From Escherichia coli (GTDB lineage: Bacteria; Pseudomonadota; Gammaproteobacteria; Enterobacterales; Enterobacteriaceae), in the NCBI RefSeq assembly GCF_036507355.1, contig NZ_AP027877.1: 64,000 nt of DNA; one strand, given 5' to 3'. Below are positions 8,219 to 11,268 of this stretch, one piece after another. The position numbers and the translations under genes were made by a program. The notes under the pieces were generated by a model. It had not been told where the DNA came from, searched no databases, and worked only from the letters and a program-made list of their open reading frames with translations. Positions within the stretch are counted from its first letter, which is position 1; every line of letters starts with the position of its first letter.

Positions 8219-9211
<993 letters not shown>

Positions 9212-9349
9212 TTAATGAACTTAATGATACAGCATTACAAAAACAATCGAAGTTTAAAAAATAAAATTTTTATAAAGATGATCTCTGATTGACCAGAACC
9301 CTACCATACAATGGTGACTAATTTTATTACTCTCGAAGGAGATGATGAT

Positions 9350-9853
9350 ATGAATATATCATATGTGAATAGCAACAAAACGACATCTTTACCTGTTGAG
9401 CTAGATGCACTAAATAATAAAGATATCTCTTATGCCAAAGATTTTTCTTATGCCAAAGATTTCTTTTTATATATAGAAATACAGTTAAAAATTGCAAAAG
9501 ATTTTTGTAGACCTGGAGAAGAAGTATCAAGTTCTATTGCAAGTACAGTTTTTCACGCTTTTATTGATTTAGTTAACAAAATCAGGGGAAAGAAAGATTG
9601 TATGTATATTTGTACGCTTTGCTGTTTTGCCGAGGAGGTTAAAGGTGATTATTCTCATTACAGGACCTTTTCATTTGATATCGGTAATCAATATAAGGTT
9701 AAACTTACACAAAGCGGAAAAGATGAGTTCTCTTTAACTTTAGAATTTAACGATACTATAATTGAATCTCAGAAAGTCACAGGCAATAAGGCAAAGCATA
9801 TTCTTAAGGATATAGCAGAATACTATCGTAACAAACCCGGCACTTATTATTAA
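9350..9853 (+). CDS. hypothetical protein, AT-rich, between aphA and tyrB
   Basis: Track ORF 9311-9853; in-frame ATG at 9350 preceded by a strong SD (GAAGGAG); long open frame in ~30% GC DNA; internal 18-bp tandem duplication encoding SYAKDF-SYAKDF; no recognisable domain. Confidence 0.45.
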   Translation: MNISYVNSNKTTSLPVELDALNNKDISYAKDFSYAKDFFLYIEIQLKIAKDFCRPGEEVSSSIASTVFHAFIDLVNKIRGKKDCMYICTLCCFAEEVKGDYSHYRTFSFDIGNQYKVKLTQSGKDEFSLTLEFNDTIIESQKVTGNKAKHILKDIAEYYRNKPGTYY

Positions 9854-10074
9854 GTTTAATAATGATTAGAAATGCAGAAATTATTACCCCACACAAAAAA
9901 ACAGGGTAAGGAATTCCAGATAATTAGGATAATCTTAACAATAAAAGAACTAACAACGTTTATTATCTCTCACGTAGAACGATGGTATCAAAAAAATCAT
10001 CTATAAAGAAAGTGTGAAAGCGACGACAGTTTAATTTCACTGCAGGCTGGGTAATTCCAGCCTGCTTTACTGCA

Positions 10075-11268
10075 TTACATCACCGCAGCAAACGCCTTTG
10101 CCACACGTTGCACATTTGCCGTATTTAACCCGGCGACACACATGCGACCGCTGGCGATGAGATAGACACCAAATTCTTCACGTAGTCGGTCAACCTGAGC
10201 GGCACTTAAACCGGTATAACTGAACATGCCGCGCTGATTAAGCAGATAATCGAAATTGCGTTCTGGCATCTCTGTGCTCAATACCTTCACCAGTTCCTGA
10301 CGCATTGCCAGAATGCGAGTACGCATCTCTTCTACTTCCGCCAGCCAGCTGGCTTTCAATGCCTCGTCATTCAGCACCGCAGCCACCACCTGCGCACCAA
10401 AATTCGGCGGGCTGGAGTAGTTGCGGCGAACTGTTGCTTTCAATTGCCCCAGTACGCGGCCTGCAGCTTCGGCATCTTCACACAGAACAGAAAGTCCGCC
10501 AACGCGCTCGCCGTAAAGGGAGAAAATTTTCGAGAACGAATTGCTCACCAGAGCGGGTAATCCAGCGCTGGCAATGGCGCGAATGGCGTAGGCATCCTCT
10601 TCCATACCGGCACCAAATCCTTGATAGGCAATATCAAGGAATGGGATAAGCTCGCGGGCTTTGAGAATTTCAATCACCGCATCCCACTGGTCATTAGTGA
10701 GATCGGCACCCGTTGGGTTGTGGCAACATGGATGCAGCAACACAATACTGCGGGCAGGTAATGTTTTCAGCATCGCCAACAGGTCATTAAAGCGCACGCC
10801 GTTAGTCGCTTCGTCATACCAGGGGTAAGTACTTACTTCGAATCCAGCCCCGGCGAAGATTGCTACGTGGTTTTCCCAGGTAGGATCGCTGACCCAGACG
10901 CCTGATTCCGGGAAGTAGCATTTCAGGAAATCCGCGCCCACTTTCAATGCCCCTGAGCCGCCAAGGGTTTGAATGGTTGCTACGCGCTGTTGTTGCAGTA
11001 CCGGATGGTCGGCACCAAACAGCAGCGGCGCAATGGCATGGCGATAGCTGTTAAGCCCTTCCATCGGTAAATAAAGCGAAGCGCCATGAGGCTGCGCATT
11101 CAGGCGCGCTTCTGCATCAGCCACGGCTTTCAATTGTGGAATAATTCCGTCTTCGTTGTAGTACAGACCGATACTTAAATTCACTTTGTCGCTGCGAGGG
11201 TCTTCTTTAAAACGCTCCATAAGCGTAAGAATCGGGTCGCCAGCGTAGGCGTCAACTTTTTGAAACAC
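10075..11268 (-). CDS. tyrB: aromatic-amino-acid aminotransferase
   Basis: 397 aa from a GTG start ([14 protein letters not shown]...); class-I aminotransferase with PLP lysine in [16 protein letters not shown]. Confidence 0.95.

Follow-up and report, generated by a model that had tools for sequence, protein, structure and literature searches.

A probable intact yjbS in a single-gene AT-rich islet between aphA and tyrB of Escherichia coli

Results

The aphA-tyrB locus and the start of the long open frame

The window analysed here is a stretch of 64,000 nucleotides from an E. coli genome (contig NZ_AP027877.1). Its source was confirmed as E. coli in the strict sense, its tyrB being 97.7-99.5% identical to that of nearly all of 5426 complete E. 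coli genomes. Between aphA and tyrB, which are both encoded on the minus strand, a long open reading frame runs on the plus strand, and the same arrangement is found for yjbS in K-12-type records. The frame (9311..9853) encodes 180 aa from its first ATG and 167 aa from an in-frame ATG at 9350. An earlier, sequence-only reading of this region had singled out the long ORF, a GAAGGAG motif, an 18-bp duplication, a cysteine cluster and a fully overlapping antisense ORF, and each of these is present at the positions it had given (Table 1).

Table 1. Features of the aphA-tyrB region in window coordinates
Feature	Position	Strand	Basis
aphA	8219-8932	-	ORF list
AT-rich islet cassette: yjbS leader and CDS, then a 3' stretch of ~220 bp	9065..10073		homology breakpoints
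In-frame extension 5' of ATG 9350 (MVTNFITLEGDDD), probably leader and not coding	9311..9349	+	no RBS of its own, residues vary
Antisense ORF, 67 aa, TTG start, by-product of the sequence	9327..9530	-	ORF list
Shine-Dalgarno-like GAAGGAG, 8 nt 5' of ATG 9350	9335..9341	+	direct read
Full-length yjbS CDS, 167 aa + stop	9350..9853	+	ORF list, alignment, selection
In-frame tandem repeat, unit of 18 bp, 2.6 copies (AAAGATNTNTCTTATGCC), translated as (KD)ISYAKDFSYAKDF	9419..9464	+	TRF
Partial copy 3 of the repeat (TGCAAAAGATTTTT; translated as IAKDF), 42 bp 3' of copy 2	9493..9506	+	repeat search
G after T5 run, absent in K-12-type alleles (TTTTTGTAG -> TTTTTTAG)	9507	+	alignment column 228, sequence strings
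Cys cluster C-x3-C-x2-CC (CMYICTLCC), codons 84-92	9599..9625	+	
Predicted compact C-terminal domain, four antiparallel strands then a helix (ββββα), residues ~105-160	9662..9829	+	
Lesion hot spot; GGAAAAAAAGAG (A7) in most intact alleles, run interrupted in the window (AAAAGATGAG)	9715..9725	+	alignment, sequence strings
Hairpin GCAGGCTGG-N6-CCAGCCTGC, shortly after the tyrB stop codon	10042..10065	-	direct read
tyrB	10075-11268	-	ORF list

The segment upstream of ATG 9350 lacks a ribosome-binding site for its own start, and GAAGGAG falls inside it. Its encoded residues are free to vary among strains (T/I, L/R/P/H, E/D, D/Y/G); GGAG is unchanged across a 5-strain alignment, in which the motif reads GAAGGAG or GATGGAG. 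RefSeq CDS starts fall at the position equivalent to 9350, and this segment is probably a 5' leader rather than coding sequence.

At the other end of the region, the hairpin that follows the tyrB stop codon has a conserved stem and a variable loop in nine strains, and is probably the terminator stem of tyrB, forming part of the islet cassette. A scan with a consensus terminator model did not call it because it has no T tail. Promoter-like sites were no commoner than in shuffled sequence (5 found, 5.4 expected), and Rfam gave 0 matches at E <= 1 within 8850-10150. A 44-aa ORF lies downstream of the long frame, at 9872-10006; it was rejected as a gene, as 1-bp indels inside it differ among strains.

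Identity with K-12 yjbS

In K-12-type RefSeq records, the annotated yjbS (204 bp; b4621, WP_001321562.1) lies on the same strand and uses the same ATG as the long ORF, and both begin MNISYVNSNKTTSLPVELDALNNKDISYAKDF. A published K-12 table gives tyrB(+)/yjbS(-), that is, opposite strands; with tyrB encoded on the minus strand in the window, this puts yjbS on the plus strand. The DNA of the window ORF and of K-12 yjbS is 92.3% identical, and the first 46 residues of the K-12 protein are collinear with the window ORF, the extra repeat unit aside. The two thus share the aphA-tyrB locus, the strand, the start codon and the ribosome-binding site. The K-12 allele differs in three respects: its 18-bp unit is single, the G that follows the T5 run has been lost, and so has one A of the A7 run.

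The loss of 1 bp at the position equivalent to 9507 shifts the reading frame, and K-12 then reads ...IAKDF-LDLEKKYQVLLQVKFFTHLLI*, so that the product has 67 aa, the last 21 of them out of frame (K-12-type translations end ...KIAKDFLDLEKKYQVLLQVKFFTHLLI*). The 67-aa YjbS of K-12 is thus a frameshift-truncated 5' remnant of the long ORF, whereas the window encodes the complete protein. A yjbS orthologue should by its annotation yield 67 aa, and the window product has 167; this mismatch is explained by the K-12 frameshift, so that the K-12 reference is the derived form. The suggestion made from the sequence alone that the sense ORF is disrupted in K-12 is therefore borne out, the disruption being a 1-bp deletion.

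That reading had also placed a 67-aa yjbS between aphA and tyrB in K-12, implying its identity with the antisense ORF, which has exactly this length. If the antisense ORF were the translated gene and the sense ORF incidental, however, K-12 yjbS should lie on the strand of the antisense ORF; it is annotated on the other one and its product begins MNISYVN, so that the identification of the antisense ORF with yjbS is refuted by annotation and alignment. The antisense ORF starts at a TTG without an upstream Shine-Dalgarno motif, it shrinks from 67 aa to 50 in K-12, 39 in O157 and under 40 in AR_0119, and the nonsynonymous/synonymous substitution ratio in its own frame is 1.53 (see below). That the antisense ORF and YjbS both have 67 aa is coincidental. 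We regard translation of the antisense ORF in place of the sense ORF as scarcely credible, and the antisense ORF itself is spurious, neither a gene nor yjbS.

Coding status of the sense frame

A frame as long as this one had been judged unlikely by chance, and shuffling agrees: stop-free runs in the islet extend to 186 codons, whereas the longest after mononucleotide shuffling measure 70 +/- 15, and 1 of 5000 shuffles reaches 180. Composition differs among codon positions, GC1/2/3 of the long ORF being 0.37/0.31/0.25 (GC3 < GC2 < GC1). For pairs of sequences with more than 2 differences among 10 intact alleles, dN/dS by the Nei-Gojobori method was 0.15-0.5. We also counted, in all six frames, the variant sites of 10 related alleles against their consensus (44 substitutions). 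In the sense frame the ratio of nonsynonymous to synonymous changes was 0.32 (19 synonymous, 25 nonsynonymous; binomial p = 2.6e-4), while the remaining five frames gave ratios of 0.57-1.53, not significant. Enrichment of variation at third positions, taken alone, was not significant (10/13/19, p = 0.22). The indels that separate intact alleles measure 18 bp and 42 bp, both multiples of 3.

The frame might nevertheless be non-functional, the islet being an H-NS-bound AT-rich spacer or 'promoter island' in which the frame stays open in some lineages by chance or because the gene it descends from died only recently. We consider this unlikely. A run of 186 stop-free codons at 31.6% GC, a deficit of nonsynonymous changes confined to the sense frame, a ribosome-binding site, and indels that are always in frame among intact alleles all speak against it. 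Since it combines a ribosome-binding site, a stop-free frame beyond chance and purifying selection in its own frame, the sense ORF has the marks of a genuine protein-coding gene under moderate constraint (ratio about 0.3).

An in-frame 18-bp repeat of variable copy number

Tandem Repeats Finder (TRF) reported the repeat with a period of 18 and 89% matches, and a further repeat search placed the units at 9419-9436 and 9437-9454; the register of the sequence-only reading, 9428-9445 plus 9446-9463, amounts to the same repeat and gives SYAKDF-SYAKDF on translation. Full copies number 1 or 2 depending on the strain, and intact proteins of 161 aa and of 167 aa both occur. The sequence of two-copy alleles is AAAGATATC-TCTTATGCCAAAGATTTT-TCTTATGCCAAAGATTTC. 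Alleles with a single copy fall into two registers, KDISYAKDFF (K-12, L012) and KDFSYAKDFF (O157, L011). Each would derive from the two-copy form by loss of a different 18-bp frame, so that the repeat would have contracted at least twice. In a metagenomic allele (P0008), 14 codons (42 bp) are deleted in frame up to the third AKDF copy, a length equal to the spacing between repeat copies 2 and 3. None of 60 sampled genomes had a three-copy allele. Whole in-frame 18-bp units are thus gained or lost, yielding the 161-aa and 167-aa products, in agreement with the slippage proposed from the sequence alone: copy number is 1 or 2 among strains, and the change is always in frame.

Intact and disrupted alleles in the population

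A megablast search with 9000-10080 matched 4358 of 5426 complete E. coli genomes, and the ORF alone (9350-9853) matched 4350 and was absent from 1076. We took a census of alleles in 60 records spaced evenly through the 4351 that matched. Intact length was found for 28 alleles of 504 bp, with two repeat units, and 2 of 486 bp, with one. The others were disrupted: 22 of 484 bp (the K-12 and BL21 type), 5 of 476 bp (the O157:H7 type), 2 of 503 bp with a 1-bp deletion (the ATCC 8739 type), and 1 partial, interrupted by an IS5-family element. Intactness was checked by translation for 9 fetched alleles of 504 or 486 bp, all of which (9/9) translate intact into 167 or 161 aa; the other alleles of these sizes were classed by length. 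About half of the 60 sampled islet-bearing genomes hold an allele of intact length and about half a disrupted one.

Three small deletions cluster at the A7 run. Here the K-12 type has A6, as the second of its 1-bp losses (window ~9717-9725), ATCC 8739 has lost 1 bp, leaving 128 aa, and O157:H7 carries a 10-bp deletion, leaving 119 aa. Compared across alleles, the lesions of K-12, O157:H7, ATCC 8739 and the IS5 strain are independent, giving at least 4 inactivations, a number that counts in favour of a non-functional frame. Because about half of the islet-bearing genomes hold disrupted alleles, yjbS is clearly dispensable, and dispensability in many niches would lead to its recurrent decay.

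The two repeats invite the idea of a contingency locus, in which slippage in the 18-bp repeat or in the A7 run would reversibly switch or tune expression. A copy number of 1 or 2 with two deletion registers, and three independent lesions at the A7 run, are what such phase variation might leave. Yet the 18-bp unit is in frame and so cannot switch the gene off, and only 1 or 2 copies occur in the sample. A tract of 7 nt is short for phase variation. The A-run lesions are, moreover, fixed across lineages (22/60 of the K-12 type, 5/60 of the O157 type), and that of K-12 is accompanied by a second frameshift, which argues for decay rather than reversible switching. We hold a phase-variable yjbS to be very unlikely.

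Annotation of intact alleles

The sequence-only reading had supposed that the long ORF might be unannotated. This proved wrong, since intact products of 161, 167 and 174 aa are already deposited, under the names 'hypothetical protein' for E. coli and 'Uncharacterized protein' in UniProt/AFDB. A Shigella flexneri entry corresponds to the 174-aa product, and the Shigella sonnei entry listed is a 120-aa partial. These E. coli and Shigella proteins of 161, 167 and 174 aa (P0001, P0002, P0007; A0A1M0STK9) are 83-94% identical over their full length, with the same architecture, and differ from the window product allelically only, in having 1 or 2 SYAKDF units, in the changes C84F and C88F, and in the choice of start. 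In genome annotation, RefSeq labels intact-length alleles 'frameshifted' or 'incomplete; missing C-terminus', or divides them into a pseudogene and an 83-aa CDS, and this mislabelling likely stems from comparison against truncated reference proteins. Literature on yjbS consists of incidental mentions, with no functional study. The gene is thus already catalogued and uncharacterised, and no new kind of system is indicated.

An AT-rich islet that alternates with the KguS/KguR island

In 200-nt windows over 9100-9999 the GC content is 0.26-0.335, against 0.45-0.57 in most flanking windows, and it is 0.316 over 8950-10070. The horizontal origin proposed from low GC thus finds support in a foreign-like composition, and the patchy distribution of the islet is that of an acquired element. 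The islet differs from horizontally acquired islets in being without mobility genes, a tRNA site or flanking direct repeats. The ORF list holds no integrase or IS element in it, and a repeat search turned up no more than a weak inverted repeat of 23 nt with 74% complementarity.

The KguS/KguR 2-oxoglutarate island of uropathogenic CFT073 (c5032-c5041) is inserted between tyrB and aphA (PMC3694859). In one genome with the kgu island, homology to the window breaks off at ~9064 and is restored at 10074, at the tyrB stop codon, so that the island replaces 9065-10073 at the identical aphA-tyrB site. Among the complete genomes kguS occurs in 1045 and yjbS in 4350, together 5395/5426. Judged from these breakpoints and counts, the yjbS islet and the KguS/KguR island behave as alternative occupants of one site. 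Their content is unlike: the island is of unrelated sequence and ~15 kb long, with a two-component system, metabolic operons and a demonstrated role in fitness, whereas the islet has 1 kb and one orphan gene.

The K-12 stretch between tyrB and the annotated yjbS has been listed among 'promoter islands' bound by H-NS and marked as foreign DNA (PMC3661553); the H-NS binding in that work cites the Kahramanoglou and Oshima data sets and concerns the K-12 allele only. This stretch corresponds to the dead 3' part of yjbS, and its description as a promoter island counts towards a non-functional frame. The islet resembles the H-NS-silenced AT-rich promoter islands of K-12 in having ~31% GC in a genome of ~50% GC and in the H-NS binding reported for K-12.

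Outside E. coli and Shigella the islet left few traces. Phages held no yjbS copy, and hits in a plasmid collection were mislabelled chromosomes or chromosome-sized records, plus one 17-kb Klebsiella oxytoca record. Two peptide patterns scanned against GTDB species representatives found no genuine copy, the sole hit, in an assembly of Flavobacterium paronense, being a K-12-type E. coli contaminant contig. The islet may have been acquired horizontally from an unsampled source, and may be largely silenced by H-NS, as the binding reported for the K-12 allele would suggest.

The predicted protein

The 167-aa product (19.2 kDa, pI 6.8, GRAVY -0.38) is hydrophilic and has no predicted transmembrane segment. 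Its full-length AlphaFold2 model is weak (pLDDT 52.7), with residues 1-36, including the repeat, disordered, followed by three helices and then ββββα; the N-terminal half models poorly (pLDDT 27-54). Modelled alone, the C-terminal 75 residues reach a pLDDT of 75.6, with 77-91 in the core, on almost no alignment depth, and this model gives weak support to a ββββα C-terminal domain. The predicted topology is shared with the small ββββα domains of the XRCC4/PAXX head, the PUR repeat/Whirly, CdiI and the TriTu immunity proteins.

Neither the window product nor nine further alleles gave any Pfam match at E <= 10. There was no match in PHROGs or PADLOC, nor in a sequence search of the PDB (best E = 1.1). 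The sole NCBIfam match, to BamG at E = 0.021, was dismissed as noise, its 13.9 bits falling far below the cutoff of 250. An exhaustive profile search (hmmsearch) across 1.84 billion representative proteins yielded 27 short sequences (26-142 aa) with partial coverage of the profile, and those inspected or in common with a word-index search were fragments of yjbS; the word-index search gave 64 hits, and every named one came from Escherichia or Shigella. As far as these searches reach, YjbS seems to be a protein without a detectable relative outside E. coli/Shigella. The absence of a homologue or recognised domain in the searches, and the low prediction confidence for the N-terminal half, are further points for a non-functional frame; the pLDDT of the C-terminal domain, obtained on so little alignment depth, is a point against one.

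The cysteine cluster did not hold up as a conserved feature, since cysteines are replaced in intact alleles: C84F in L002, L006 and L012, C88F in P0002, and C91R in P0004. Because C84, C88 and C91 are each replaced, a conserved metal site is unlikely. Likewise, a radical SAM or Fe-S reading of CX3CX2C (C84, C88, C91) was rejected, given that its cysteines vary and that Pfam gives no match at E <= 10. A type III effector was also considered. In its favour stand only a disordered N-terminus rich in Ser, Thr and Asn and a chance-level match to SipA (E = 1.1), and O157:H7, which bears a T3SS, has a truncated yjbS allele.

Our tentative picture, which we think somewhat improbable as a whole, is of a soluble, non-enzymatic 19-kDa cytoplasmic protein whose ββββα domain would bind a protein, in the manner of immunity proteins or adaptors, or nucleic acid, with the N-terminal ~36 residues and their SYAKDF units serving as a flexible, length-tolerant tail.

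Discussion

The evidence strongly favours 9350-9853 (+) being the intact ancestral yjbS, the one gene of an AT-rich islet restricted to E. coli and Shigella and lying between aphA and tyrB. So understood, yjbS is a real but ordinary orphan gene, decaying in several lineages including K-12. The locus offers a compact case of orphan-gene decay together with two alternative cassettes at one chromosomal site.

A bolder proposal would make full-length YjbS a functional orphan exclusive to E. coli and Shigella, with a new fold and a new partner, its activity tuned by the number of SYAKDF units and the losses at the A7 run in K-12, ATCC 8739 and O157:H7 being adaptive and not neutral. If this were true, aphA-tyrB would be a locus with three states, namely intact yjbS, dead yjbS and the Kgu island, that follow lifestyle, but we rate the chances of it as slim.

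The main value of the analysis is a correction of annotation, the K-12 reference 'protein YjbS' being a frameshift remnant. Extrapolating from the sample, mislabelling of the intact 161/167-aa gene would affect ~2000 complete genomes. Studies that take K-12 yjbS as a gene, whether 'essential' by TraDIS or a target for recoding, are handling a pseudogene in an H-NS-bound islet. Transposons under-sample H-NS-bound AT-rich DNA. Such under-sampling may explain why Goodall et al. found yjbS 'essential' by TraDIS only, an explanation absent from their paper.

Alternative cassettes between aphA and tyrB

Depending on the E. coli genome, the site between aphA and tyrB is occupied either by the whole yjbS islet, as in the window, or by the KguS/KguR 2-oxoglutarate island of ~15 kb (loci L005, L016 and L018; NZ_CP148423.1), and either cassette supplies its own sequence up to the tyrB stop codon. 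Among the 5426 complete E. coli genomes searched, yjbS was found in 4350 and kguS in 1045, leaving ~31 that are covered by neither count. Elements of both cassettes were seen on one metagenomic contig of 106 kb (L017; ENA ERZ27273331, contig_1024_polypolish), where kguS fragments are followed by a yjbS ORF split by an insert of ~850 bp and then by the kgu island's 2-oxoglutarate dehydrogenase genes. This contig is either a chimera assembled from a mixture of strains or a genuine recombinant carrying both cassettes.

Sequence features around yjbS

The yjbS gene is flanked by an imperfect inverted repeat, composed of T/A runs, which is probably due to chance but might be left over from the ends of an element. 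The hairpin downstream of the gene has only 3 G-C pairs and scored as terminator-like on the minus strand only. Also downstream is a 44-aa ORF, and several strains have one of comparable length. Between strains, 1-bp indels occur in an A-run near its start, and ATCC 8739 has a T insertion; these changes rule it out as a conserved coding frame.

Features of the yjbS islet and its surroundings in the window
Feature	Coordinates	Strand	Description
yjbS islet	9065-10073		whole cassette
Inverted repeat, 23 nt	9081-9103 and 9893-9915		flanks yjbS; arms 789 nt apart, 74% complementary
Hairpin TTACCC...GGGTAA	9884-9909		30 nt 3' of the yjbS stop codon
44-aa ORF	9872-10006	+	downstream of yjbS

In one locus (L014, NZ_CM149872.1) ISKpn26, of the IS5 family, lies inside yjbS past codon ~75, and an IS1 insertion in K-12 yjbS has been described in macrophage-adapted small-colony variants (PMC4999529). 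IS insertions seem drawn to the AT-rich islet.

Annotation and doubtful records

In RefSeq records of E. coli (loci L001, L002, L006-L009 and L011-L013), intact yjbS alleles of 161 or 167 aa are called 'frameshifted' or 'incomplete' pseudogenes, or else are given as a pseudogene plus an 83-aa CDS (WP_000275035.1), apparently because truncated proteins, those of K-12 and O157, serve as the reference. Among the PLSDB 'plasmid' records matching yjbS (H102-H108), several measure 0.37-4.9 Mb and resemble whole or fragmentary chromosomes. A K-12-type allele on a 17-kb Klebsiella oxytoca 'plasmid' (NZ_CP069917.1) suggests misassembly or contamination. A 9.5-kb contig of Flavobacterium paronense CECT 8460 (L015, NZ_JAUFQN010000013.1) carries aphA-yjbS-tyrB of the K-12 type with extra homopolymer errors, and is almost certainly an E. 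coli K-12 contaminant in a long-read assembly. Finally, tyrB of strain 14EC007, labelled E. coli (H120, NZ_CP024131.1), is just 86% identical to that of the window, all others being at least 95% identical; the species may have been misidentified, or the segment may be recombinant.
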